The notes under the pieces are model-generated. The model made no database searches. It had not been told where the DNA came from and worked only from the letters and a program-made list of their open reading frames with translations. Shown piece after piece: positions 7,442 through 20,003 of a stretch of DNA of 29,561 nt (positions are counted from its first letter, which is position 1; the number at the start of each line of letters is the position of its first letter). Both the position numbers and the translations under genes were made by a program. The DNA lies in the IMG/VR virus record IMGVR_UViG_3300026229_000001, positions 1 to 29,561 of that record. One strand, given 5' to 3'. The stretch is from a virus.

Positions 7442-7822
7442 CTATTCTTCTTCCCCGGTGTAGCTGGTGGTGTTGGTGTACTGGGTGAGTGTGATCAGGC
7501 ACTGGTCGGCCCACTGTTTCACCGTCTGCCGTGTCACACCCAATCGTTGGGCTGCCACCGAATAGGTTTGATCATACCCGTAGACTTCCCTGAATGCGGC
7601 AAGCCGTGCTAGCCGTTTCCGCTGTTTGGATGGTTCACATGTGAGGGTGTAGTCGTCGATGGCCAGTTGTAGATCGATCATGGCTACAAGGTTGTTGCCG
7701 TGGTGTTGTGGCGCGGTTGGTGGGGGTGGCATGCCCGGTTCGACACTCGGTTTCCATGGGCCGCCGTTCCAGATCCATTGGGCGGCTTGGATGATGTCGG
7801 CTGTGGTGTAGGTTTGGTTCAC
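7442..7822 (-). CDS. DNA-binding protein with a C-terminal helix-turn-helix (sigma region-4-like)
   Basis: 126-aa ORF. The segment FREVYGYDQTYSVAAQRLGVTRQTVKQW resembles region-4 or LuxR-type HTH units. This is pattern recognition only. Confidence 0.7.
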   Translation of the reverse strand: MNQTYTTADIIQAAQWIWNGGPWKPSVEPGMPPPPTAPQHHGNNLVAMIDLQLAIDDYTLTCEPSKQRKRLARLAAFREVYGYDQTYSVAAQRLGVTRQTVKQWADQCLITLTQYTNTTSYTGEEE

Positions 7823-7825
7823 TGG

Positions 7826-8119
7826 TCACCCCTTGAACAGGTTGTCGAGGTTGTCGAGGTTGTCTGGGTTGCTGGTGTTGGTGGTGTCGAATCGTCCCAC
7901 ACAGTGGCAGTAGTCGTACATGAGTTTGATGATGTGTTGGTGGTCGCCGAGGTAGGTGTTTCCGCTGATGCTGTAGGTGGCTGTGCCGTCTTTTGCGATG
8001 GTGTATTTGGCGGTGATTGTTTCGGGTGTTTCGGTGTTGGTGATGATTGCTGTGGTGGTGGTGCCTACGGTTTGTAGCCTGGTGGTTTGGGTTCCGTCGT
8101 CGAGGATGGTAGTAACCAT
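7826..8119 (-). CDS. Hypothetical Thr-rich protein with a DNL x3 C-terminal repeat
   Basis: 97-aa ORF, tightly packed with 3-nt and 12-nt gaps to its neighbours. It contains a 9-bp tandem repeat at 7839-7865. Confidence 0.7.
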   Translation of the reverse strand: MVTTILDDGTQTTRLQTVGTTTTAIITNTETPETITAKYTIAKDGTATYSISGNTYLGDHQHIIKLMYDYCHCVGRFDTTNTSNPDNLDNLDNLFKG

Positions 8120-8131
8120 GAGGGTTGTCCT

Positions 8132-8452
8132 TTAGATGCTGGTTTGGTTGTCGGCTAGATGAATAATATCGGATAAAGGTTTCGGCTGGTCTAGGTGTTG
8201 TATGGTTTTGTTGGCTAGCCGTTTGGCTACTCTGTAGCACATTTTGGTATAGTGTTTGTTGTCTAGGTTGTGGTATTGTTCTCGCACCGCAATATATAGT
8301 AGGGAGTCTTGGTACAGGTCGTCTGCACTGATTGCGGGGTAGTGTCCGGCTGTTTTGGTGCATGCCCGGTTGAGTGTGCGAAGATGATGGTTTGTGGCCC
8401 ATCCCCACGATGCGGTGGTGGCCAGGTCTGCTTTTGTTGGTCGTCTGCTCAT
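8132..8452 (-). CDS. Hypothetical protein (weak sigma region-2-like patch)
   Basis: 106-aa ORF with ATG at 8452. The patch ISADDLYQDSLLYIAVREQ is reminiscent of sigma-70 region 2. The functional call has low confidence. Confidence 0.7.
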   Translation of the reverse strand: MSRRPTKADLATTASWGWATNHHLRTLNRACTKTAGHYPAISADDLYQDSLLYIAVREQYHNLDNKHYTKMCYRVAKRLANKTIQHLDQPKPLSDIIHLADNQTSI

Positions 8453-8461
8453 GGCACTATT

Positions 8462-9508
8462 TCATCTCGCTATCTGATAGTTGTTTGGTGTTTTGTTGTT
8501 TATAGTGTAGCACACTAGTCCGGGGTGGCCGGTGGTGCCCGTCTTGTGCCGGTACCAGACGGATTCTCCTTCCATGGATGGGCATTGGATGAAGGTGCGT
8601 TGTCCTTGCTCGGAGATTTCTAGGTGGTGCCGGTGCCCTGCCATGAGTATATGGGATGTGGTGCCGTTGTGGAATTCTTGGCCGCGCCACCATTCGTAGT
8701 GTTGGTTGTTGCGCCATTGGTGTCCGTGGGCGTGCAGGATGGTGGCGCCGGCTACGTTGACGGTGGTGGTCATTTCGTCCCGCTCAGGGAAGTGGAAGTG
8801 GATGTTGGGGTAGTGGTTGGTGAGCTGGTAGGCTTCTGCGATGGCGCGGCAGCAGTCCACGTCGAAGGAGTCATCGTAGGTGGTGACTCCTTTGCCGAAG
8901 CGTACTGCTTCACCGTGGTTGCCGGGGATGGAGGTTACGGTGACGTTGGCGCAGTGGTCGAACATGTGGACGAGTTGCATCATGGCCATGCGGGTGAGCC
9001 TGATTTGTTCCGTCAAGGGTGTTTGTGTGCGCCAGGCGTTGTTGCCTCCTTGTGACACGTATCCTTCGATCATGTCGCCGAGGAATGCGATGTGGACTCG
9101 TTCAGGTTTGCCTGCCTGTTGCCAGTAGTGTTTTGCAGCGGTGAGGGAGCGCAAATAGTCGTCTGCGAATCGGCTGGTTTCTCCGCCGGGGATGCCTTTG
9201 CCGATTTGGAAGTCGCCTGCCCCGATGACGAAGGCCGCAGTGCTGTAGTCGGTGCGGGTGTCCTGTTCGGGTTTTGGTGGCTGCCATTCGGCTAGTTTAT
9301 CGACGAGTTCGTCTATAGGGTAGGGGTTTGTTGCGGGTTGGTGGTCGATGATTTTTTGTACGGATCGGCCTGTTTCTCCGTTCGGTAAGGTCCATTCGGA
9401 GATGCGTGTGCGGCGCACGGTTCCGTTGGCTAGATTGTCGTCGATGGTGTCGATGGCGTTGTCGTGGTTGGCTAGCTGTGTGAGGAGCCGGTCAATATTG
9501 TCTATCAT
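8462..9508 (-). CDS. Calcineurin-like metallophosphoesterase (SbcD/Mre11-like fold)
   Basis: I chose the ATG at 9508, which forms an ATGA overlap with the upstream stop. The motifs GAGDFQIG, FLGDMIEG, IPGNHGE and HAHGH appear in the canonical order. Confidence 0.85.
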   Translation of the reverse strand: MIDNIDRLLTQLANHDNAIDTIDDNLANGTVRRTRISEWTLPNGETGRSVQKIIDHQPATNPYPIDELVDKLAEWQPPKPEQDTRTDYSTAAFVIGAGDFQIGKGIPGGETSRFADDYLRSLTAAKHYWQQAGKPERVHIAFLGDMIEGYVSQGGNNAWRTQTPLTEQIRLTRMAMMQLVHMFDHCANVTVTSIPGNHGEAVRFGKGVTTYDDSFDVDCCRAIAEAYQLTNHYPNIHFHFPERDEMTTTVNVAGATILHAHGHQWRNNQHYEWWRGQEFHNGTTSHILMAGHRHHLEISEQGQRTFIQCPSMEGESVWYRHKTGTTGHPGLVCYTINNKTPNNYQIAR

Positions 9509-9702
9509 CGGATATCCTCTTTCTTTTGCGGGGTGGCGTTGGCTTGTGTGCGGCGATAGTCTTTTATAACGGTGGCGGAGATGGGGTATCCGGCTTGGGT
9601 GAGCTGTTTTGCTAGCCACGAGGCGGGGATGGTTTTGTCGGCGAGCACGTCTGCGGCTTTGCGGCCGTAGCGTTGAATAAGGGTTTCAGTTTTTGTTGCC
9701 AT
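9505..9702 (-). CDS. Small putative DNA-binding protein
   Basis: 65-aa ORF, translationally coupled to the downstream gene. It has an HTH-like stretch, SWLAKQLTQAGYPISATVIKDY. Confidence 0.65.
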   Translation of the reverse strand: MATKTETLIQRYGRKAADVLADKTIPASWLAKQLTQAGYPISATVIKDYRRTQANATPQKKEDIR

Positions 9703-10849: not shown

Positions 10850-11521
10850 TTACTGTAGCACAGTGTCTAGTGCTTGTGTCAACCCTGTTTTGCCGGCCTG
10901 CAGGTAGGTGTCTGTGACATCCCCAACTGTGAGGGGCACATGGGTGGCTTGCGGTAGTGCTTGGGCGAGTGTTTTTGCCATCTGGTGGCCTGCCGGGTCG
11001 GGGTCGGACCAGATGTAGATGTGGTCGTAGCCTTCAAAGAATTTGGTCCAAAAGTTTTGCCACGAGGTTGCGCCGGGTAGGGCTACGGCCGGCCATCCGC
11101 ATTGTTCGAGGATCATGGAGTCGAATTCGCCTTCGCAAATATGCATTTCGGCTGCCGGGTTGGCCATGGCGGCCATGTTGTAGATGGAGCCTGTGTCTCC
11201 TGCCGGGGTCAAATATTTGGGGTGGTTGTGGGTTTTGCAGTCGTGCTGGAGTGAGCAGCGGAAACGCATTTTTCGTATCTCGGCTGGGCCGCCCCAAACG
11301 GGGTACATGTATGGGATGGTGATGCACTGGTTGTAGTTTTCGTGGCCTGGTATGGGGTCATTGTCGATGTATCCAAGGTGGTGGTAGCGGGCTGTTTCTT
11401 CGCTGATGCCTCTTGCCGAGAGCAGGTCGAGAATGTTTTCGAGGTGGGTTTCGTAGAGGGCCGAGGCTTTCTGGATTCGGCGGCGTTCCGCAATGTTGTA
11501 TGGGCGTATGCTGTCGTACAT
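10850..11521 (-). CDS. DNA primase, TOPRIM/RNA-polymerase module
   Basis: 223-aa ORF. It has DnaG-like LSARGISEETARYHHLGY, the TOPRIM motif ICEGEFDSM, and IYIWSDPDPAG. Confidence 0.88.
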   Translation of the reverse strand: MYDSIRPYNIAERRRIQKASALYETHLENILDLLSARGISEETARYHHLGYIDNDPIPGHENYNQCITIPYMYPVWGGPAEIRKMRFRCSLQHDCKTHNHPKYLTPAGDTGSIYNMAAMANPAAEMHICEGEFDSMILEQCGWPAVALPGATSWQNFWTKFFEGYDHIYIWSDPDPAGHQMAKTLAQALPQATHVPLTVGDVTDTYLQAGKTGLTQALDTVLQ

Positions 11522-11768
11522 TCGGGTTTTCTTTCTCTAATTGTTGTTGTAGTTTGGCGAGTCCGCCTCCGACACCGCATGTGTGGCAGTACCAGACGCC
11601 CTTGTCGAGGTTGATGCTCATGGAGGGCTGGTGGTCGTCGTGGAACGGGCAGAGTATGTGTTGCTCGTTCTTGGACGGATTGTACCGTATCTGGTAGGTG
11701 TCGAGGAGGCGGCAGGTGTCAGAGGTGTGGGAGGAGCTCGTTGAGGGTTGATACCACATAGGCTTCAC
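11358..11768 (-). CDS. DNA primase zinc-binding (CHC2) module, in a different frame from the TOPRIM ORF
   Basis: It carries the motif CPFHDDHQPSMSINLDKGVWYCHTCGVGGG. Plausible starts are GTG 11768 or ATG 11759. Beyond about 11521 the frame turns Pro/Arg-rich and overlaps the TOPRIM ORF, so the true 3' end is uncertain. Confidence 0.75.
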   Translation of the reverse strand: MKPMWYQPSTSSSHTSDTCRLLDTYQIRYNPSKNEQHILCPFHDDHQPSMSINLDKGVWYCHTCGVGGGLAKLQQQLEKENPNVRQHTPIQHCGTPPNPESLGPLRNPPRKHSRPALGKRHQRRNSPLPPPWIHRQ

Positions 11769-12078
11769 TCCAGGGTTTGTTGCGCTGTTTCATGATGACG
11801 AGTCCGATAGTGGACTGGTTTTCGCGGTTTCGGTGTGTTTCGTAGTTGCGTGCCTCCCGGCTGGCTTGTCTCACGAATTCGGCGAGATGGGGCTGGCCCG
11901 CTTTCGCTTCTATCACATAGGTTTTGTTGCCGGTTTTGAGGATGAGGTCGCCTTCATCCTCTTTACCGTTGAGGTGGAGGCGCTCAATATTGTGTCCGGT
12001 GTCGCGTAGCTGGTGTAATAGTCGTGTTTCCCATTCTGCGCCTGCCCTGCGGTTGCGTGACTGTTGTGAAGCCATCAT
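11719..12078 (-). CDS. PD-(D/E)XK nuclease, archaeal Hjc-type Holliday-junction-resolvase-like
   Basis: 119-aa ORF. It shows the pattern GAEWE...GDLIL...YVIEAKAG (E, D, ExK). The ATGATG start overlaps the helicase stop. Confidence 0.75.
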   Translation of the reverse strand: MMASQQSRNRRAGAEWETRLLHQLRDTGHNIERLHLNGKEDEGDLILKTGNKTYVIEAKAGQPHLAEFVRQASREARNYETHRNRENQSTIGLVIMKQRNKPWSEAYVVSTLNELLPHL

Positions 12079-12938
12079 AGTCCTTTATGTTCTTGTGTCA
12101 TGTTCCATGGCTGTTTTTCGGCAAGTGGCCCGAAGAATGTGTATTCGGGGTAGGCTCGGAGCCGTTCGTATCGGGTGCCGTCGGGGCTGGATTTGCCGGT
12201 GCGCTGTTTAAGTACGGCGATGCGCGCCTCTGCCGGTATCGTGAGCCCGTTGCCGTTATCCTCGCCACCATACAATGAGACTCCGAGGATGAGTTGTGGT
12301 TTTTCGGAGAGGCCGTTTTTAATTTCCCTGCGTGCCGGCGGGTGTTCGATGTCGGAGCCGGTTTTGTCGGTTGCGTGGTGGGTGACAATAATGGTGGAGC
12401 CAGTATCTCTACCTAACGCTGTGATCCATTGCATGGCTTCTTGCTGGGCTTGGTAGTCGGATTCGCAGTCTTGAATGTCCATCAGGTTGTCGATAACAAT
12501 GATGGGCGGGAAGGTGTTCCACATTTCCATGTAGGCTTGTAGCTCCATGGTGATGTCTGTCCATGTGATGGGTGACTGGAATGAGAATGTGATGTGTTGG
12601 CCGTGGTGGATGCTGTCTCGATAGTATTCTGGCCCGTAGTCGTCGATGTTTTGTTGTATCTGGGCGGTGGTGTGTTGTGTGTTGAGTGAGATGATTCGTG
12701 TGGAGGCCTCCCAGGGTGTCATGTCCCCTGATATGTAGAGGGCGGGCTGGTTGAGCATGGCGGTGATGAACATGGCTAGCCCGGATTTTTGGCTGCCGGA
12801 CCGCCCCGCGATCATGACGAGATCCCCTTTGTGGATGTGCATGTCCAGGTTGCGGTAGAGGGGTTCTAGCTGGGGTATGCGGGGCAGTTCGGCTGCGGTT
12901 TGGGAGGCTCTCTCGAAGGATCTTTGGAGAGAGAGCAT
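12075..12938 (-). CDS. DnaB-like replicative helicase (RecA-fold domain)
   Basis: 287-aa ORF. Walker A is AGRSGSQKSG and Walker B-like is PPIIVIDNLMD. It sits next to the primase. Confidence 0.88.
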   Translation of the reverse strand: MLSLQRSFERASQTAAELPRIPQLEPLYRNLDMHIHKGDLVMIAGRSGSQKSGLAMFITAMLNQPALYISGDMTPWEASTRIISLNTQHTTAQIQQNIDDYGPEYYRDSIHHGQHITFSFQSPITWTDITMELQAYMEMWNTFPPIIVIDNLMDIQDCESDYQAQQEAMQWITALGRDTGSTIIVTHHATDKTGSDIEHPPARREIKNGLSEKPQLILGVSLYGGEDNGNGLTIPAEARIAVLKQRTGKSSPDGTRYERLRAYPEYTFFGPLAEKQPWNMTQEHKGL

Positions 12939-13914: not shown

Positions 13915-14858
13915 GTGTTTTCCTTTTCTTTGTTTTCGGCTTCTGGTGGCTGTACTGTGGTTTCTATCGGGTATCTGTAGGCGTCTTTCCCGTCTACCGC
14001 CCAGCAGGCGTCCTTGACGGGGCATCCTTTGCAGAGTGCTGTGACGTGGGGTACGAAGATGCCTTGGCTGATTCCTTTCATTGCTTGACTGTACATGGAT
14101 GATACATGCCGGTAGGTGTTGTTGTCAAGGTCGTAGAGTTCGGTTGCTGTGCCCCGTGTCGGGGACTGGTCGTCGTTGCGGCTGGTGGCTGGCGTCCAAA
14201 ACATGCCTTTCGTCACATGGATGCCGTGTTGGTTGAGCATGTACCGGTATGTGTGCAGCTGCATACTGTCGGCGGGTAGGCGTCCGGTTTTGAGGTCCAA
14301 AATGAAGGTTTCACCCGTATTTGTATCTGTGAATACCCGGTCAATATATCCGACTATTTTTGTGCCGTCTTGGAGGGTGGTTTCTACAGGGTATTCGATG
14401 CCTGGCTGGCCGTCAATAACAGCGGTGATGTATTCTGGGTGGTTGCGCCTCCATGTTTTCCACCGGTCCACGAAGGTGGGGCCGTACATCATCCACCAAT
14501 TGTAGTCTTTCTTGTGTGGCCCGCCCGACTCGCACATGTTTTTGCACACTCGGCCGGAGGGTTTGATGTTTGTGCCTTCGGATTCGGCGAGGGCGACTTG
14601 GGTGTCGAAAATGTTTTTGAAGGATGAGAGTTTGTCTGGCAGTTCAGGGTATTCGGCGGGATTGTACAGGTGTAGGTCGTATTGTTCGGTGATGTGGTGT
14701 ATGGCGCTTCCGGCGATGGTGGCGTACCAGGTGTGGTGTTGGGTGTGGTAGCCGTGGGATAGGCGCCATTTTTCACCGCATTCGGCCCACTGTGACAGTG
14801 ATGAGTAGGAGATGTGGCCTGGATGGTGGATGGTTTTCGGGTATTGTGCTAGAGGCAT
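13911..14858 (-). CDS. Cas4/RecB-like PD-(D/E)XK exonuclease with a four-Cys cluster
   Basis: ATG at 14858 forms a TAATG overlap with the upstream stop. There is an N-terminal Cys in SQWAECGEKW and a C-terminal CKGCPVKDAC, and the core reads IDRVF...ILDLKTG. Confidence 0.85.
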   Translation of the reverse strand: MPLAQYPKTIHHPGHISYSSLSQWAECGEKWRLSHGYHTQHHTWYATIAGSAIHHITEQYDLHLYNPAEYPELPDKLSSFKNIFDTQVALAESEGTNIKPSGRVCKNMCESGGPHKKDYNWWMMYGPTFVDRWKTWRRNHPEYITAVIDGQPGIEYPVETTLQDGTKIVGYIDRVFTDTNTGETFILDLKTGRLPADSMQLHTYRYMLNQHGIHVTKGMFWTPATSRNDDQSPTRGTATELYDLDNNTYRHVSSMYSQAMKGISQGIFVPHVTALCKGCPVKDACWAVDGKDAYRYPIETTVQPPEAENKEKENT

Positions 14859-15217
14859 TACTGGTCGCCTTTGTGGGTGTTCCATGGGTTGCGGGTGTCT
14901 ACCCCGGCATTGTGTTGCTGGTATGCGAGGAGTGCGAGGCAGTGCCAGGCAGCATGTGCCAGGTGGGGTAGCCCGGATTCATAATCGAGGTTGTTTCCTT
15001 GCTGCCATGATAGCAGGTGCCTGTAGAGGGCGTCAACGCTGTGGCTCCACGGATAGCCGCCGGTCCAGTTGTTGTCGCCGTATTTGGTGGCGCCGTAGCC
15101 TGCCACGGAGCCTAGGGCGTGTAAGGCTGCGGGGTCGATGAGGGATAGCCTGCAAAGTTTGAGTTCTTTCTTGGCGCCAGTATCAGGGTCGGTGTACATG
15201 CGGGTGGGCTCATCCAT
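14858..15217 (-). CDS. DUF5664-like protein (family annotated as the N-terminal domain of phage dATP/dGTP diphosphohydrolases)
   Basis: 119-aa ORF with the RBS AAGGAG. The pattern GATKYGDNNW...ALYRHLLSW...ESGLPHLAHAAWHCLALL matches my recollection of that family. This is not database-verified. Confidence 0.65.
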   Translation of the reverse strand: MDEPTRMYTDPDTGAKKELKLCRLSLIDPAALHALGSVAGYGATKYGDNNWTGGYPWSHSVDALYRHLLSWQQGNNLDYESGLPHLAHAAWHCLALLAYQQHNAGVDTRNPWNTHKGDQ

Positions 15218-15242
15218 GGTGTGTGTGCTCCTTGAGTGTGGG

Positions 15243-15326
15243 TTACTGGTTGGGGTTGTGGGCGAGTGCTACGGCGAGGATGATGATGGCGAGGGTTTCT
15301 GCGATGAGGATGGGTGTTGTGATCAT
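15243..15326 (-). CDS. Possible 27-aa single-pass membrane peptide
   Basis: The sequence is MITTPILIAETLAIIILAVALAHNPNQ. The ATG forms an ATGA overlap with the upstream stop. It is very short, so this call is tentative. Confidence 0.45.
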   Translation of the reverse strand: MITTPILIAETLAIIILAVALAHNPNQ

Positions 15327-15526
15327 TTGGTGTCGCGGGGATTGGTGGTGAGTGTGGAGGCGCCTAGGAGGGTGGTGAGGGCGCATGCGGCGATGATGGC
15401 GAGGGCGGCTTTGTGGCTGGTGCCGGTGGCGTACATCCATGTGATGATGCCGCCTTGGATCCAGGCGAGGCTGGTGAAGAACGTTTCGTAGCTGTGTAGC
15501 TCAATGTTGTTGTTGGGTGTGTTCAT
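15323..15526 (-). CDS. Small two-helix membrane protein
   Basis: 67-aa ORF with hydrophobic segments LAWIQGGIITWMYA and ALAIIAACALTTLLGA. It has ATGA coupling on both sides. Confidence 0.7.
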   Translation of the reverse strand: MNTPNNNIELHSYETFFTSLAWIQGGIITWMYATGTSHKAALAIIAACALTTLLGASTLTTNPRDTK

Positions 15527-15750
15527 GCTTGCTCCTGAAGAATGGTGTTGATGGTTTTGTAAATGTTGTACAGGTCGGCTTCGATGGTTTGTAGCTGTTT
15601 GATTTGGTGGTCGAGGTTAATGTGTGGGTTGAGGGTGTTGATGCGGGAGGCGATGTCGGTGGCTGTGCGTAGTGTACCGCCGGTGTGGTGAATGATGTGT
15701 GCCGTGTCGGCGAGTCCGGTGGTGACAGCGTAGTGGGAGAGGAGAGGCAT
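15523..15750 (-). CDS. Hypothetical protein (75 aa)
   Basis: ATG at 15750 after AAGGA. The upstream part of the track ORF (15751-16092) overlaps the better-supported 15768..16301 gene and has Arg/Pro/His-rich off-frame composition. Confidence 0.65.
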   Translation of the reverse strand: MPLLSHYAVTTGLADTAHIIHHTGGTLRTATDIASRINTLNPHINLDHQIKQLQTIEADLYNIYKTINTILQEQA

Positions 15751-15767
15751 AGCGGTCCTTGACGGGG

Positions 15768-16301
15768 TTACTGTTGCGGGTTGATGTTGAGGTCGGTGAC
15801 GTTGGGGTGGTCTTCTGTTCCGGTGACGAGGCAGTGGACGGTGACGGGGAGTTTGGATGCTCCCGGCTGGCGGACGGTAGCGCCGTAGACGATGCTGAAC
15901 GTGTCTTTGCCAATAATTTTGTGGAGTTGGAGGTCGATGTCGGGGTTGCCGTTCCAGTTGACACCCTGTGCTGCGGCCTGTTGTTCGGCTTTGCGGTTGC
16001 AGGTGTGTGCCGCGGTGATCATGGTCAGCCCCTTGCTGGTTTCTTCCCCCCTTGCTTGGGCTTGCCGGTGGGCTTTGGCCTGCTCGGTCCACAGTGACTG
16101 TTCTGCGGCAGCCTGGCGGGCTTTCTTTTCGGCTTTGCGCTGTTGGACGGTTTCAGGTGTCCAGGCGGTGTTGGCTGTGGTGGCTTGTGGAGCTGGCTGT
16201 GAGGCGAGTGGCGGATTGTCGTCTGGGGCTGGCATGAAGGAGGCTGCGGCGATGATGGCGAGAGTGGCGCCGGCGATGGTGTAGCCTGTTTTCTTGTTCA
16301 T
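15768..16301 (-). CDS. Membrane-anchored or secreted protein
   Basis: 177-aa ORF. It has the N-terminal signal/anchor TIAGATLAIIAAASFM, a Pro/Gln/Ala-rich linker, and a folded C-terminal domain. The RBS GGAAAGGGG lies upstream. Confidence 0.78.
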   Translation of the reverse strand: MNKKTGYTIAGATLAIIAAASFMPAPDDNPPLASQPAPQATTANTAWTPETVQQRKAEKKARQAAAEQSLWTEQAKAHRQAQARGEETSKGLTMITAAHTCNRKAEQQAAAQGVNWNGNPDIDLQLHKIIGKDTFSIVYGATVRQPGASKLPVTVHCLVTGTEDHPNVTDLNINPQQ

Positions 16302-16372
16302 GGCTTTGTGTTCCCCTTTCCGGGGTGTTGTTCGTTGCTGACATGATCAATACTTTCAGCGGCTGGACCCAC

Positions 16373-16402
16373 TGTCAAGGTGTCGCTCAAGTGTTGTGAG
16401 CG
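16373..16402 (-). promoter_or_regulatory. Palindrome-plus-TTGACA box, copy 1 (candidate leftward promoter/operator)
   Basis: Read on the minus strand: CGCTCA-caacact-TGAGCG, then 5 nt, then TTGACA. The hexamer starts 77 nt upstream of the ATG at 16301. The architecture is the same as at 17135-17164. No convincing -10 hexamer at 17 nt. Confidence 0.45.
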
Positions 16403-16423
16403 ATGCTGTTGTGGCTTGGGGTT

Positions 16424-16732
16424 TTATCGGGCACACAGGGTTAGCAGGTGGCCCACATTGATGCGGGTCACATTCCAGTAGAGTTGCGTGGCTTCACCAC
16501 CAGTGAGCGGCTTCCACTCGTCATGGCTGAACACGGTGCCATCGGATGCGATGAATGTGTTGGGGCGTAGCTTGTGAAGTTCAGTCTCTACATGCTGCCG
16601 GTAGGTTTCGGCGAGGCTCTCGAAATCGAGGTGGTCGCAGGAGAGGTTTTCGAGGCGTGTCAGGTCGAAAGGCTCAGGGCAGTCCGGGGTGTGGGTGTAG
16701 AGCTGGGTGAAGTGGTTGGCGATCTTCTGCAT
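16424..16732 (-). CDS. Early-region hypothetical protein, paralogue A (102 aa)
   Basis: ATG at 16732 after AAAAGGAA. It aligns without gaps over the C-terminal 60 residues with the product of 16770..17078. Confidence 0.75.
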   Translation of the reverse strand: MQKIANHFTQLYTHTPDCPEPFDLTRLENLSCDHLDFESLAETYRQHVETELHKLRPNTFIASDGTVFSHDEWKPLTGGEATQLYWNVTRINVGHLLTLCAR

Positions 16733-16769
16733 GACGGGTTCCTTTTCTCGTGTGGTGGGTTGATGGTTT

Positions 16770-17078
16770 TTATCGTGTAGCTTCGGCAATGATGGCGTCC
16801 ACGTCGATCGTGTCGATCATGTCGTGGAGGTCTTCTGCCTCGTCCGGGGTGAGTGGCTGCCAGCCGGGTGGCCCATACACTGCACCGTCGAGGGTGACAG
16901 TCCACATGGGTCGGATGAGTCGTATGGCTTCTTGTACTTTAGCGTGGTACATGCGGCGCACCATAGCCAGATCCATGTCGTCTGAATGGTCTCCGGTGAG
17001 GCTGTGGAGGCTGAGGGGGTCGATTTCTGTCTGCCCGTAGAGGCTGGTGAAGGATGGTGTGATGAGTGTGCCATCCAT
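16770..17078 (-). CDS. Early-region hypothetical acidic protein, paralogue B (102 aa); first gene of the leftward arm
   Basis: ATG at 17078 after AAAGGAG. It has the same length as its paralogue and shares the residues Y, V, RP, DG, V, W, PLT, EA, L, I, V and R. Confidence 0.75.
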   Translation of the reverse strand: MDGTLITPSFTSLYGQTEIDPLSLHSLTGDHSDDMDLAMVRRMYHAKVQEAIRLIRPMWTVTLDGAVYGPPGWQPLTPDEAEDLHDMIDTIDVDAIIAEATR

Positions 17079-17134
17079 GGGTGTGCTCCTTTCGGTGGTG
17101 TAGGGATTGTCGCGGTTTCTAGAGTGTGCGGGCT

Positions 17135-17164
17135 GCGACCCCATGTCAAGGCTACGCTCATTCG
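17135..17164 (-). promoter_or_regulatory. Palindrome-plus-TTGACA box, copy 2 (candidate leftward early promoter/operator)
   Basis: Read on the minus strand: CGCTCA-atccgaa-TGAGCG, then 5 nt, then TTGACA. The hexamer starts 62 nt upstream of the ATG at 17078. Confidence 0.45.
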
Positions 17165-17749
17165 GATTGAGCGTTTCATGCTGGAGTGTCTGGTGTGACA
17201 GATGTCACTTAAGCCATTATGGCCTCTCTCAGCGCCTGATATATGTCCGGGGTAGGATTATATAGGGTTGGCCCTGCTGTTCGATTCTAGGGCCCTTCTA
17301 GGGCGTCTCAGGGGTATGTCTGGGTGATAGCGGGTGTGGCAGATGATCTAGCGAGTCAAGGTGCCGAGCTGAGACATAAGATCTATCATCTAGGTGTGTG
17401 AGATGCATCACATCCTCCTGGCTTAGTGTGCACCCTCAAGGCTACTCTGCCCATCTGGCGTGGAGGGTGTAGCCCAGAAATGCCGTTTAAAGCTTCAGGG
17501 GTACGCCTAGGAGCGCCTTGCAGGGTGGGGGCTAGGTATTTATACCCCCAGCATATTCTGATCGATTATAGACGCCTACAGGAGCTTGATACGCGATCCG
17601 CTATCCAGACGCAGATCATCAGCCCCCATCTTGCTTAGCTAAGCCTGCACTATGTGGACAGTGTGGGATGCTAAGAGGGAAGAAGGACACGGTAAAAAGA
17701 AGAGGGGGGAGCATCAGCCTTCACACCTTAAGGTCTTAGCACTGATGGA

Positions 17750-17786
17750 CTTAGCACCGAGCCCCTCAAGGGCTCGGCATCAGCCC
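17750..17786 (+). repeat. 37-bp perfect direct repeat, copy 1 (contains hairpin 17757-17777)
   Basis: The sequence cttagcaccgagcccctcaagggctcggcatcagccc is identical to 18272-18308. It holds an 8-bp stem, ccgagccc with gggctcgg, and a 5-nt loop. Confidence 0.95.
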
Positions 17787-18271
17787 GAGCAGGCTCAGCC
17801 CATCAGGCACAGCCCTGAAAGGGGTACACGCCATCAGGGAAGGCTTGAGAGTACGAGGAGCCTTAGCGACGAGTACTCGAAAGCCTGAGGGAACACCATC
17901 AGCACTGATGGGCCTAGCGTGTTCGGAAAGAACACAGGAGTACAGTGTGACAGCTGTCCGGGAGTGAACCCGTTCTGACTAGGGGTTTCAGCCTTAACCA
18001 CCCTCAAAGGTTACAAGACTCTAAGAAAATTTAAGGAAAAGTTTAGGTTTAATTTTTGGACCTTTACCACCAAAAACACCCGTTTACACCCCTCAAACCC
18101 GCCTATAGAGCCAAACGCCGATGTTGAGGGTATCTCTACCTAGTGTGATAGGCTGGACAGGTAGCCAGCTGGACGCAAGGCCAGAAAGTGCTGACGCACT
18201 TCCCATCCTCGCTTACCATCAGTCTACCAAACACTTAAAGACCTAAGGGCTTAGCGCTAAGGTGCTGATAG

Positions 18272-18308
18272 CTTAGCACCGAGCCCCTCAAGGGCTCGGC
18301 ATCAGCCC
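18272..18308 (+). repeat. 37-bp perfect direct repeat, copy 2 (contains hairpin 18279-18299)
   Basis: Identical to 17750-17786, offset by 522 bp. Confidence 0.95.
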
Positions 18309-18360
18309 TAAAGTCTTAAACACTTAAAGTACATATAAAACTTTAAAAGCTTAGCACTTA

Positions 18361-18660
18361 AGGTTATCAATAAACATTAAAGCTTTAAAATCTTAAAGTA
18401 AATATAACACCTTAAAGGCTTAGCACTTAAGGATATAAACTTTACATCAGTGTTTAAGACTTTAAAACTTAAAATAACTATTAAGACTTAAAGACTTATA
18501 AGCTTTAAACACTTAAAGTAACTATAAGACTTTAAAAACCTTAAGTACTTAAGGTTAACCATCAGTCTTAAACTTTAATATTATAACCTATAAGCTTTAA
18601 GACTTATAGGTTATAATATAATATAAGTTATAAAAGTTTTAGAAGAGCTAAAGGGTTAAC
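18361..18660. repeat. AT-rich core (23% GC) built from CTTAAAG / CTTTAAA / CTTAAGG-type motifs
   Basis: Hand count: 14 G+C in each of the five 60-nt lines 18361-18660, which is 70/300. It contains the 20-bp perfect palindrome at 18537-18556 and the 17/8/17 inverted repeat at 18578-18619. Confidence 0.9.
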
Positions 18661-19047
18661 TTCTTTACTTCTCTACTCTCTTTGGTACTTTCTCTCTTCT
18701 CTTCTTTTCTTCATCAGGGGAGAAGAGGAACCTTTACCGTCAACGCTGATGAGCTTTCACCGTGTGACTCGTGTACCACCGGTCGTACGCTCCCGGTTTG
18801 TACACTCCCCACACTTACTCTACCCGTGCCCCTTTAAGGCTTGGCGTGTTCGGCTGAAGGCGTACGGCGTGTCACGCCAACACCCTTAACACTAGGTAAG
18901 ACTTAAAGTGTATATTATATGTAGAAGACTTTAAAAACTTTAAGGGTGTTCCTGCTGAGCCCGTGTCCTTCAACGCTAGGCGCCAAGCGCTAAGCCTTGA
19001 AACGCGAACACACACCCACCCCCTTTTTTCTTTCGTGTCCTTCTCTT

Positions 19048-19076
19048 TTGACACAGCTGGGGGGCGATGTGATTTT
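19048..19076 (+). promoter_or_regulatory. Candidate rightward promoter upstream of the HNH gene and cos
   Basis: TTGACA at 19048-19053, a 17-nt spacer, and TG-t-GATTTT at 19068-19076. The -10 element is weak. The candidate rests on its position only. Confidence 0.3.
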
Positions 19077-19265
19077 TCTCACATGCCAGGGGGTAGTGGA
19101 GAAAACAACCACCCCAGAATATTCAAGACACCCCCTCAAACAAACAAAACAGCCCCTAGAATCGACTAGCAGGGCAAGGGTAGAGTATTCATACCCCCAA
19201 CGGTTCCCAGGCCGTTACAGAGGCAAATAAGACCCATACAAGGCTAGGCGAGGAACAGACACAAC

Positions 19266-19568
19266 ATGGCACGCACCAACCGCACAGCCACCGCAGCCCA
19301 CCGACGCTGGCGGCAACGACTCATCACCCAAGCCCGACAACAAGGCCAAACCGAATGCCCACTCTGCGGAGCAACCATCACCTGGAACACCCATGATCTC
19401 CCAACCAGCCCCGAAGCCGACCACATCACACCCGTCAGCAGGGGAGGACTCAACACCCTCGACAACGGGCAAATCATCTGCAGAACATGCAACAGAAGCA
19501 AAGGCAATCGCAGCGAACCAAACATCCAATTCCAACAACAAACCACAAAAACCCTGATCCCATGGTGA
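19266..19568 (+). CDS. HNH endonuclease
   Basis: 100-aa ORF with the RBS GAGGAA. The motif runs CPLCG...EADHITPVSRGG...LDNGQIICRTCNRSKGN. It lies 52 nt upstream of cos. Confidence 0.9.
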   Translation: MARTNRTATAAHRRWRQRLITQARQQGQTECPLCGATITWNTHDLPTSPEADHITPVSRGGLNTLDNGQIICRTCNRSKGNRSEPNIQFQQQTTKTLIPW

Positions 19569-19619
19569 AAAACCTGCCAACCCCCACCGGGGACACCCCC
19601 TGCACAGGCGTGCAAGACC

Positions 19620-19630
19620 TCGTACGGCTT
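19620..19630 (+). other. cos cohesive-end sequence (physical genome ends)
   Basis: The 11-mer tcgtacggctt is followed by agtgaaatacctccc. This matches my recollection of the 11-base single-stranded extension and the first bases reported for P. acnes phage genomes. It sits between the HNH and TerS genes. The recollection is unverified. Confidence 0.7.
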
Positions 19631-19685
19631 AGTGAAATACCTCCCTTTTGTGGATTTGTCTGTTTGTCGACTTTTTGTGTTGGTG

Positions 19686-20003
19686 GTGAGTGTTGTGCAG
19701 CCTGAGCTTCCCGGGTCTCGTGATTGGTGTGGGGAGACGCGTCGTTGGTGGCGTGTGTGGGGTGAGGATAGCCGCGCGCAGTATGTGTCTGATGAGGAGT
19801 GGCTGTTTCTCATGGATGCTGCGGTGATTCATGATGTGGTGTGGCGTGAGGGTCGCGCGGATTTGGTGGCTTCGCTTCGTGCTCATGTGAAGGCTTTTAT
19901 GGGTATGTTGGATCGGTATTCGGTTGATGTGGCGTCTGGTGGCCGTGGTGGGGGTTCTGCGGTGGCGATGATTGACCGGTATAGGAAGCGCAAGGGGGCC
20001 TGA
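19686..20003 (+). CDS. Terminase small subunit (by position)
   Basis: The ORF is open from 19632, but its first codons lie on the genome end and are T-rich. Plausible starts are the in-frame GTG/TTG codons at 19677-19695. It lies directly upstream of TerL. Confidence 0.7.
   Translation: MSVVQPELPGSRDWCGETRRWWRVWGEDSRAQYVSDEEWLFLMDAAVIHDVVWREGRADLVASLRAHVKAFMGMLDRYSVDVASGGRGGGSAVAMIDRYRKRKGA

Follow-up and report, generated by a model that had tools for sequence, protein, structure and literature searches.

An oriented CATCAG hexamer array in the putative origin region of Cutibacterium acnes phages

Iteron origins, such as those of F RepE, pPS10 RepA and lambda O, combine same-orientation repeats beside an AT-rich unwinding region with inverted copies nearby, and in iteron plasmids (F RepE, pPS10 RepA) monomers occupy the direct repeats and dimers the inverted repeat. 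The GAGGC pentamers of SV40 T-antigen and the iterons of geminivirus Rep are strict words of 5-8 bp, present in direct and inverted copies next to an AT tract and a hairpin or palindrome. Such origin words of eukaryotic viruses are lineage-specific, co-evolve with the initiator and are read by the origin-binding domains of superfamily 3 (SF3) helicases or by HUH Rep proteins. In this work we analysed an array of the hexamer CATCAG in the IMG/VR virus record IMGVR_UViG_3300026229_000001 (positions 1 to 29,561; the whole 29,561-nt stretch is referred to as the window), where it lies in a ~2-kb non-coding gap between the minus-strand block of right-arm genes and the plus-strand block that contains cos and the late genes.

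A megablast search with positions 17200-19900 matched 232 Propionibacterium/Cutibacterium acnes phage records at 80-95% identity, which identifies the window, as judged by these matches, as the rotated complete genome of a Pahexavirus-type C. acnes siphophage. The gap is left unannotated in most of the deposited related records. The same locus, a >1-kb gap near the right genome end with a drop in GC, a switch in GC skew and 'well-conserved low-complexity runs', was proposed as a putative replication origin by Marinelli et al. 2012 (mBio, PMC3448167); neither CATCAG nor the palindromes nor the CTTAGCAC-hairpin-CATCAG unit described below is mentioned in the accessible portion of that article. 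The searchable literature yielded nothing relevant that links CATCAG to a phage origin. Thus, the region itself is already known as a putative origin, and the hexamer array, palindromes and hairpin units appear to be undescribed.

The array resembles the iteron origins in its same-orientation repeats beside an AT-rich region and its nearby inverted copies, and iteron-like binding sites were among the functions initially suggested for it. The suggestion does not hold for the hexamer itself: iterons are ~17-22-bp direct repeats, regular and helically phased, that lie beside a rep gene, whereas CATCAG is a strict 6-mer spaced irregularly at 54-385 bp, and no Rep-like protein was found. The iteron-like array of this locus is instead the block of AT-rich ~34-44-bp repeats at 18309-18600, which fits the class better than CATCAG, if loosely. 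The arrangement of words is also similar to that in SV40 and geminiviruses, but no SF3 or HUH Rep protein is encoded in this phage. Single-strand initiation (ssi) signals of the G4 type and RSF1010 ssiA/ssiB, the latter used by the RepA helicase and RepB' primase, place a hairpin with conserved flanking boxes near an iteron/AT-rich origin, as is seen here, and the phage encodes both a helicase of the AAA_25/DnaB_C group and a dedicated primase. The phage units differ in that they are direct repeats, the primase is DnaG-type and most CATCAG copies have no hairpin. A short oriented word read on one strand is likewise known from the T4 late promoter TATAAATA (gp55) and the -10 words of extracytoplasmic function (ECF) sigma factors, and sigma-like proteins are present in the phage; however, CATCAG clusters in one gap and not before genes, and the assignment of a sigma region 2 is not significant. 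Finally, the stoperators of Cluster A mycobacteriophages (L5 gp71) share with CATCAG an asymmetric sequence, an orientation bias relative to transcription and an actinobacteriophage background, but they are 13-14 bp long, occur genome-wide in short intergenic gaps and have a known repressor; the 6-bp, clustered CATCAG falls outside this class.

A local, strict and oriented hexamer array

CATCAG occurs on the plus strand of the gap at 11 positions (17617, 17712, 17778, 17801, 17832, 17897, 18217, 18300, 18445, 18560 and 18712), and its reverse complement CTGATG only at 17742, 17905 and 18746, the next copy (19789) being outside the gap. All coordinates given for the array in the initial annotation proved correct, including those of the 11-mer ACCATCAGTCT at 18215 and 18558. 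The enrichment of both words noticed there, CATCAG and CTTAGCAC, is significant against a dinucleotide-shuffled null: in 2000 shuffles of 17617-18717, CATCAG appeared 0.14 times on average and at most three times, versus 11 observed copies, and CTTAGCAC 0.05 times on average versus five. In an order-2 Markov model of the whole gap, CATCAG ranks first among all hexamers (11 observed, 0.78 expected, z = 11.6). Together, the shuffles and Markov models rule out chance or composition as the source of the array. Each of the 18 one-mismatch neighbours of CATCAG has no more than one copy on the plus strand of the gap; therefore, all six bases of the word matter, and a degenerate family such as CMTCAR is ruled out. 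CCTCAA, which occurs in hairpin loops and at other places, is a distinct word.

The array is local. Outside the gap the counts agree with those expected from composition (4 versus 2.7 for CATCAG, 24 versus 26 for CTGATG), which excludes a genome-wide polar motif, and 11 of the 15 plus-strand CATCAG copies are found inside one 1.1-kb stretch. The genome-wide surplus of CTGATG is explained by the strong G+T excess of the plus strand. Taken alone, the orientation bias within the gap (11 of 14 copies forward) is modest, with a one-sided binomial probability of ~0.03; two of the three reverse copies are halves of palindromes, which leaves ~10 solitary forward copies versus one solitary reverse copy. 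Short flanks are common to several copies (CATCAGGGRAG and the ACCATCAGTCT 11-mer).

For the assessment of conservation, 80 related loci were fetched from IMG/VR, and 76 distinct gap sequences were aligned with the window. The bias persists in all of the related phages, with a mean over 77 gaps of 9.2 forward copies (range 4-13) versus 1.75 reverse copies (range 0-3). Seven near-invariant core sites, at 17778, 17832, 18217, 18300, 18445, 18560 and 18712, are kept in 66-75 of the 76 sequences; four variable sites (17617, 17712, 17801 and 17897) are kept in 11-51. The core sites are spaced irregularly (54, 385, 83, 145, 115 and 152 bp). Averaged over them, identity is 0.96-0.98 at each motif position and 0.75-0.97 at flank positions, with no extended consensus. 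Low-frequency gains and losses of CATCAG occur in both orientations, at roughly the ratio that composition predicts. The functional set is probably made up of the seven core sites and the palindromes.

Several other origins of the array were considered and rejected. A coding origin, as His-Gln repeats in the open reading frame (ORF) 17652-17888, is ruled out by the frequent frame-breaking indels in relatives, the lack of a family match for this ORF and the location of most sites outside it. Selection on a restriction-modification target is ruled out by the outside-gap counts, which are at expectation and show no avoidance, and by the absence of any literature link in our searches; the one active C. 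acnes restriction-modification system reported recognises AGCAGY, not CATCAG. A start-codon 'sponge' is ruled out, as CTGATG is found at no gene start.

Palindromes and hairpin units around the hexamer

Both conserved reverse copies (17905 and 18746) are paired with a forward or near-forward copy at a spacing of exactly 2 bp, in the form CCATCAG-NN-CTGATGG. The perfect palindrome CCATCAGCACTGATGG (CCATCAG-CA-CTGATGG), already noticed at 17896-17911, has the left half CCCTCAG in most relatives and CATCAG in ~26 of them. The second locus, degenerate in the window, is perfect (CCATCAGCGCTGATGG) in several relatives; its CTGATG is kept in 47/76 and its forward half is exact in 18/77. One phage carries both loci as perfect palindromes. 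The use of one hexamer in two palindromic loci favours a DNA-binding protein as the reader, since inverted pairing at 2-bp spacing is the classic signature of a dimeric binder of double-stranded DNA. The two 12-bp palindromes that contain CTTAGC are also present as described.

The word CTTAGCAC has five plus-strand copies (17735, 17750, 18272, 18350 and 18419), with no reverse copy and none elsewhere in the window. Its status as an independent interleaved box does not stand, because two of the copies belong to a perfect 37-bp direct repeat, CTTAGCAC-CGAGCCCCTCAAGGGCTCGG-CATCAG-CCC, at 17750 and 18272, and another two open units of the AT-rich repeat (CTTAGCACTTAAGG). In the two copies of the 37-bp repeat an 8-bp GC hairpin separates the box from the hexamer, and the second copy lies at the GC-to-AT transition that forms the left edge of the AT-rich block. 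Across all phages we counted 158 cases of [G/A]CTTAG followed by CATCAG at 27-30 nt start-to-start; for the unit with its hexamer at 18445, this distance is exactly 27 nt in 40 sequences. About 20 relatives carry a third paralogous hairpin unit, in which the stem CCGAGCC/GGCTCGG is replaced by CTGAGCC/GGCTCAG, a compensatory change from C-G to T-A. The hairpins at 17757-17777 and 18279-18299 are flipped (loop CTCAA to TTGAG) in 9/76 and 6/76 sequences, respectively, with the flanking boxes and hexamer unchanged. The combination of a fixed box distance and a co-varying stem points to a single-stranded or transcriptional reading.

One relative (L044) lacks exactly positions 17762-18283; the lost 522 bp equal the offset of the two 37-bp repeats, and the deletion presumably arose by recombination between them. 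It matches a ~500-bp deletion reported for the viable phage PAS50 and takes out the block 17800-18160, a highly conserved part of the gap. The phage can therefore do without four or five sites and without the whole stretch that separates the two units. None of the relatives has lost the site at 18300 (retained as a merged unit), 18560 or 18712 by deletion.

The only more distant relative found was the Cutibacterium avidum phage CA1NRNZ, with a helicase 70% identical to that of the window; a further IMG/VR search for outgroups gave C. acnes phages only, no similarity was found in plasmids or phages of other genera, and the C. avidum hairpin unit was not found in viral and metagenome contigs. 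The gap of CA1NRNZ is 1.5 kb long and contains zero copies of CATCAG, yet it shares with the window two hairpin units, a polypyrimidine word, a 65-bp element and a promoter-like element. Its unit GATTAAC-[GC hairpin]-CAACAA is twice repeated with 26 nt start-to-start, and CAACAA is oriented 7:0 in the gap without being significantly enriched. The 65-bp element (31786-31850 in CA1NRNZ) has both blocks 100% identical at the same 50-nt spacing, and the promoter-like element (30861-30905, plus strand) lies at the left gap edge in the same orientation as in the window. From this comparison, the architecture is conserved and the words are lineage-specific, which suggests a reader that co-evolves with the phage or host species. 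Replication proteins of the two phages are 47-70% identical, and the proteins encoded at 7826-8119, 8132-8452 and 8457-8717 only 28-34%; the genes at ~15240-17180 have no counterpart in CA1NRNZ.

Candidate readings of the array

We tentatively favour the possibility that the CATCAG copies act in cis as half-sites recognised by a sequence-specific DNA-binding protein, encoded by the phage itself, at the Pahexavirus origin/early-late control region. The most specific pointer to such a protein comes from the palindromes, and the location agrees with it. We infer that the reader is a protein, that it is encoded by the phage and that the outcome would be origin activation or regulation. Single subunits would bind the solitary sites, about seven of them conserved and all facing the same direction, which flank and punctuate the AT-rich block (18300 at its left edge, 18445 and 18560 inside, 18712 at its right edge), and dimers would bind the palindromes at 17896 and 18737. 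This clustered, oriented occupancy might organise the region such that the AT-rich block melts or the GC hairpins extrude, and melting or extrusion would permit loading of the phage RepA/DnaB-like helicase and DnaG-type primase. The same occupancy may also control the divergent promoters of the interval. As CATCAG is missing from the C. avidum gap, the reader appears to be lineage-specific. The initial proposal of a strand-specific role is retained in general terms, for an array that is real, oriented, conserved, cis-acting and located in the proposed origin; its interpretation as iterons is not, and that as a packaging signal is unlikely.

Several observations weigh against the half-site interpretation, and no single model covers all of the facts. 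Six base pairs are very few for a specific DNA-binding protein, the spacing is irregular, unlike that of iterons, and a binder of double-stranded DNA has no obvious need for a uniform orientation of its solitary sites. In most phages only one half of the palindromes is perfect. The excess conservation over random hexamers of the region is modest (P ~0.03-0.05), because the whole region is 80-95% identical among these phages, and the viable natural deletion takes out four or five sites. In three or four units the distance between box and hexamer is fixed across a co-varying hairpin. In addition, Pfam and PHROGs gave neither an initiator or Rep-like family nor a plausible binder for any right-arm ORF.

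Three products had been named for binding assays on the array. Only the one encoded at 7442-7822 (minus strand) has a helix-turn-helix (HTH) or sigma signal, namely a weak match to Sigma70 region 4/HTH (E = 1.6e-4 in Pfam, which falls short of the curated cutoff, and E = 5.6e-6 for the PHROG 'sigma factor'); the one at 9505-9702 has no detectable DNA-binding signature. For 8132-8452 (minus strand), sigma region 2 structures recur in a Foldseek search with the AlphaFold model (pLDDT 78.6; TM 0.43-0.49, E > 1), and in an hhalign comparison with E. coli RpoE the region 2 alignment is in register, at a probability of 0.4%. This likeness is not significant, and the model offers a lead, not a result. 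The 8132-8452 protein evolves fast, being 64-94% identical among C. acnes phages whose helicases are 95-99% identical. Two further candidates were rejected: the 'DNA adenine methyltransferase' annotated in one relative has no Pfam support in the window homologue (15523-16092), and gp41 (15768-16301) is described as a membrane Ltp-like protein.

A transcriptional alternative, which we consider unlikely, takes CATCAG as a -10-like element on the non-template (plus) strand, used by the host RNA polymerase with the phage sigma-like proteins, and [G/A]CTTAGCAC as the -35 element; the array would then consist of tandem rightward promoters or sigma-dependent pause sites that feed the late operon (HNH, terminase and structural genes). 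It agrees with a strict hexamer that has no flank conservation, with solitary copies that all point to the late operon and with the fixed 27-30-nt box distance in the 158 occurrences, one non-hairpin spacer giving exactly 27 nt. The C. acnes -35 consensus GnTTnG is matched by GCTTAG, and the host -35 and -10 elements are 27 nt apart, centre to centre. At the other end of the unit the agreement fails, as CATCAG lacks both T residues of the host -10 element TAnnnT, and the -35-like part of the box is less well conserved than its AGCAC. Seven to eleven promoters in 1.1 kb, with none inside the 19-kb late operon, would be odd, and the co-varying spacer hairpin and the two palindromes would be left unexplained. 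As to the proteins, the region 4 signal of 7442-7822 and the match of the 8132-8452 model to sigma region 2 agree with such a reader, the latter protein being 28% identical in the CATCAG-less C. avidum phage; the non-significance of the region 2 likeness (Foldseek E > 1; hhalign 0.4%) speaks against it. No transcript map or transcriptome of these phages was found in the searchable literature. A more specific version, in which a two-piece sigma factor (the region 2-like 8132-8452 with the region 4-like 7442-7822) reads CATCAG/CTTAGCAC as a phage-specific class of promoters or pause sites, is rather improbable. If true, the gap would also be a tandem array that times the switch to late transcription, and the C. 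avidum phage would have changed its hexamer in step with the rapidly evolving region 2-like protein.

It is similarly improbable that the array acts in single-stranded DNA, with the CTTAGCAC-hairpin-CATCAG units and the solitary hexamers as ssi-like start sites for the phage primase and helicase after melting of the AT-rich block. Nevertheless, no other reading accounts for the hairpin units as well: both flanks of the hairpin are conserved, its stem shows a compensatory change in the paralogue and loop flips are tolerated. Strict orientation and a short strict word are as expected for template recognition, and the complementary strand, 5'-CTGATG, contains CTG. The triplet CTG is the start signal of E. 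coli DnaG. The phage encodes the CHC2 Zn-ribbon and Toprim ORFs and the AAA_25/DnaB_C helicase, the location is that of the proposed origin, and the genome-wide skew indicates one-directional forks; the C. avidum phage, with primase parts 37-47% identical, has an analogous hairpin unit with other boxes. However, known DnaG-type primases read triplets and not hexamers, the two hairpin units are direct and not inverted as in RSF1010 ssiA/ssiB, and most core sites have no adjacent hairpin. The palindromes would have no role, and elsewhere CTGATG on the presumed lagging-strand template is exactly at the composition expectation.

More doubtful still is an RNA motif, in which a long untranslated transcript would present CAUCAG (or, if read leftward, CUGAUG) for protein binding or for pairing with the complementary copies, as part of an early/late termination or read-through control similar to an attenuator or to P4-type RNA immunity. 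The absolute orientation preference, the same-strand CCAUCAG/CUGAUGG hairpins at two loci and the GC hairpins with co-varying stems are compatible with it, as are the C-rich, G-poor plus strand of the gap, gap ORFs without a family match and a conserved promoter-like element that faces into the gap from its left edge in both lineages. These phages also show episomal pseudolysogeny and tight superinfection immunity, with no repressor found. On the other hand, the gap contains no Rfam family beyond an artefact, RNAalifold structures are weak and the hairpin loops flip without consequence. Divergent promoters in the AT palindrome, if present, would place 18712 on one transcript and the other sites on another, in opposite senses.

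We regard it as quite improbable that the copies have no present function and are relics of segmental duplications in a repeat-rich, low-complexity region, conserved as part of the 80-95% identity of the relatives. Short shared flanks (the 37-bp repeat, ACCATCAGTCT and CATCAGGGRAG) do suggest duplication, and the limited excess conservation, the viable loss of four or five copies and the low-frequency gains and losses in both orientations near the composition ratio are what relics would show. However, the flanks are mostly unrelated, decay would not spare exactly six bases at seven sites without leaving one-mismatch relatives, and neither palindromic pairing at two loci nor the fixed CTTAGCAC spacing is expected from drift.

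A Chi-like polar signal, which would protect the early genes from a RecBCD- or AdnAB-type nuclease entering at the right cos end, is very unlikely. In its favour, the sites lie 0.9-2 kb from that end on the strand that ends 3' there (as expected, but not specific), their clustering resembles the tandem Chi sites that protect linear DNA in E. coli, and CATCAG is missing from the gap of a phage on a different host species. Against it, the Chi sequences known to date are rich in G and enriched on the leading strand throughout the genome, whereas the phage counts outside the gap are those expected from composition; Cutibacterium has no known Chi sequence, and the model accounts for neither the palindromes nor the hairpin units. 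A packaging signal, as suggested initially, is an even less likely polar reading, since the sites are at least 900 bp from cos (19618-19630) on the last-packaged end. Even the nearest, 18712, and the overhang are 906 bp apart, and the terminase genes lie beyond the overhang.

Neighbouring features and significance

The coordinates of the array and neighbouring features are collected in Table 1.

Table 1. Features of the gap and its right border in the window (fractions refer to the 76 aligned sequences)
Feature	Position	Strand	Remarks
CATCAG, variable site	17617..17622	+	exact in 40/76; variants CATCAA, CACCAG
CATCAG, variable site	17712..17717	+	exact in 51/76; variant TATCAG
CTGATG, reverse copy, not conserved	17742..17747	+	exact in 9/76
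Unit U1: A-CTTAGCAC, 8-bp GC hairpin (CCGAGCCC CTCAA GGGCTCGG), CATCAG 17778, CCC	17749..17786	+	repeated at 18272-18308; hexamer exact in 75/76; box-to-hexamer 29 nt
CATCAG, variable site	17801..17806	+	exact in 12/76; deleted in 36
CATCAG, core site	17832..17837	+	exact in 72/76; in the segment absent from L044 (PAS50-type deletion)
CATCAG, core site (ACCATCAGTCT)	18217..18222	+	exact in 75/76; upstream flank variable
Unit U2: G-CTTAGCAC, GC hairpin, CATCAG 18300 (core)	18271..18308	+	second copy of the 37-bp repeat; hexamer exact in 74/76
Unit U4: GCTTAGCAC, 18-nt AT-rich non-hairpin spacer, CATCAG 18445 (core)	18418..18450	+	hexamer exact in 66/76
CATCAG, core site (ACCATCAGTCT)	18560..18565	+	exact in 71/76; outside all large indels, never deleted
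CATCAG, core site	18712..18717	+	exact in 73/76; never deleted; predicted in a hairpin loop
Palindrome locus 1, CCATCAG-CA-CTGATGG	17896..17911	.	perfect in the window; right half CTGATG kept in 62/76
Palindrome locus 2, CCGTCAACGCTGATGA	18737..18752	.	degenerate in the window, three mismatches; CG spacer
Palindrome GCTTAGCTAAGC	17633..17644	.	exact in 33% of relatives; most have GGTTAGCTAAGC
Palindrome CTTAGCGCTAAG	18250..18261	.	exact in 58% of relatives
DnaA box, one mismatch	17653-17661		only such box in the gap
Conserved element AACCCGCCTATAGAGCCAAA-N30-TGATAGGCTGGACAG	18096..18160	+	inside the array; blocks exact in 87% and 78% of C. acnes phages
AT-rich same-orientation repeat array, period ~34-44 bp, unit ~cACTTAArGTaaaTATAA	18309..18600	+	24-28% GC; candidate iterons/unwinding element
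Perfect 17-bp inverted repeat (I11), TATAAT on both strands	18578..18619	.	end of the AT-rich block
Polypyrimidine tract	18640..18711	+	ends at CATCAG 18712; word TCTTTGGTACTTTCT common to C. avidum phage
Promoter-like element	17271-17314	inverted	faces the early arm
Promoter-like element, degenerate	17506-17550	+	left gap edge, faces into the gap
Promoter-like element	19155-19199	+	upstream of HNH
HNH endonuclease gene	19266-19568	+	directly before cos
cos single-stranded end CCTCGTACGGCTT	19618-19630	+	exact match to the published 13-nt extension (PMC13022010); right end of the packaged genome
Small terminase	19632-20003	+	Pfam Terminase_7; right of cos, followed by structural genes on +

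Right-arm genes run on the minus strand from ~17179 down to 6948, and a Pfam scan of the gap ORFs gave a family match for none of them. The AT-rich array is supported by the repeat families D1/D2, a TRF period of 34 and 11 forward CTTAARRW words, and the GC content of 24-28% over 18301-18700 is that of an AT-rich unwinding element beside the hexamers. The array is also a copy-number hotspot, at which relatives carry deletions of 42-190 bp or insertions of 40-134 bp; in two of them nearly all of it is gone (18312-18500). At its end, at the homologous position of phage PA6, divergent sigma-70 promoters were predicted by Lood and Collin 2011. No cluster of DnaA boxes (actinobacterial TTGTCCACA) is present in the gap, and genome-wide there are 62 matches at up to two mismatches versus 81 expected; therefore, host DnaA is not an obvious reader.

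The conserved 65-bp element inside the array is dispensable, being deleted in L044, and was absent from the 185,579 genomes searched. Outer GCCTAT/ATAGGC and inner TAGAG/CTCTA pairing is possible in both C. acnes and C. avidum phages with a different interior, and the second block contains TGnTAGGCT, which resembles an extended -10. A separate promoter-like element, CTAGAATCGACTrGCAGGG...GGTAGAsT...GTATWTWCCCMCCC, has three copies in the gap. Structured RNA was ruled against: a search of the gap with Rfam 15 gave only two mir-374 matches (30 and 26 bits versus a gathering score of 54) at 18565-18628 on both strands, which are an artefact caused by the perfect inverted repeat of AT-rich sequence; neither a tRNA nor a tmRNA was detected, and RNAalifold on seven blocks and both strands predicted only weak, poorly supported structures.

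The array lies in a low-GC gap at a change of sign of the GC skew. G+T excess is found on the plus strand genome-wide, even across the arm with minus-strand genes; it is weak or mixed at 17541-19100, strongly inverted at 19101-19600 (the HNH gene and its upstream region) and flips back exactly at cos, the cumulative excess having its maximum at 17541 and minimum at 19645. The skew switch was noted by Marinelli et al., but the coincidence of a sharp boundary with cos is not mentioned in the accessible portion of that article.

Among the right-arm genes, Pfam and PHROGs identify a DnaG-type primase, represented by a Zn-ribbon ORF (11358-11768, minus strand) and a Toprim ORF (10850-11521, minus strand), an AAA_25/DnaB_C helicase (12075-12938), two nucleases, RusA and a dATP/dGTP diphosphohydrolase. 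The primase ORFs overlap in different frames, the Toprim ORF covering positions 119-341 of a 435-position PHROG profile, and could reflect a frameshift, a split gene or two separate proteins. The ORF at 14858-15217 (minus strand) strongly matches the N-terminal domain of dATP/dGTP diphosphohydrolase (PF18909, E = 2.7e-30), a gene also present in the C. avidum phage. Adjoining the gap, 16424-16789 and 16770-17144 (both minus strand) are tandem paralogues that encode acidic proteins matching phrog_919, a PHROG with no assigned function, and have no C. avidum counterpart. In CA1NRNZ, a gene annotated as a DNA methyltransferase (32370-33323) is located between the gap and HNH, where C. acnes phages have nothing.

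To our knowledge, all phages known from the dominant skin bacterium C. acnes belong to this one type; they are under development for acne therapy, and we know of no initiator, repressor or partition system found in them. The array is more structured than was initially seen; it appears to be a member of the general class of origin/regulatory cis-elements and not categorically new. If the hexamers are ordinary protein-binding sites, they would be a useful but incremental addition to the already proposed origin. The defined cis-elements (seven hexamers, two palindromes, hairpin units, AT-rich repeats and deletion variants) make the putative-origin region testable, the natural deletion variants show which of its parts are dispensable, and the hexamers provide a direct bait for the missing trans-acting factor.

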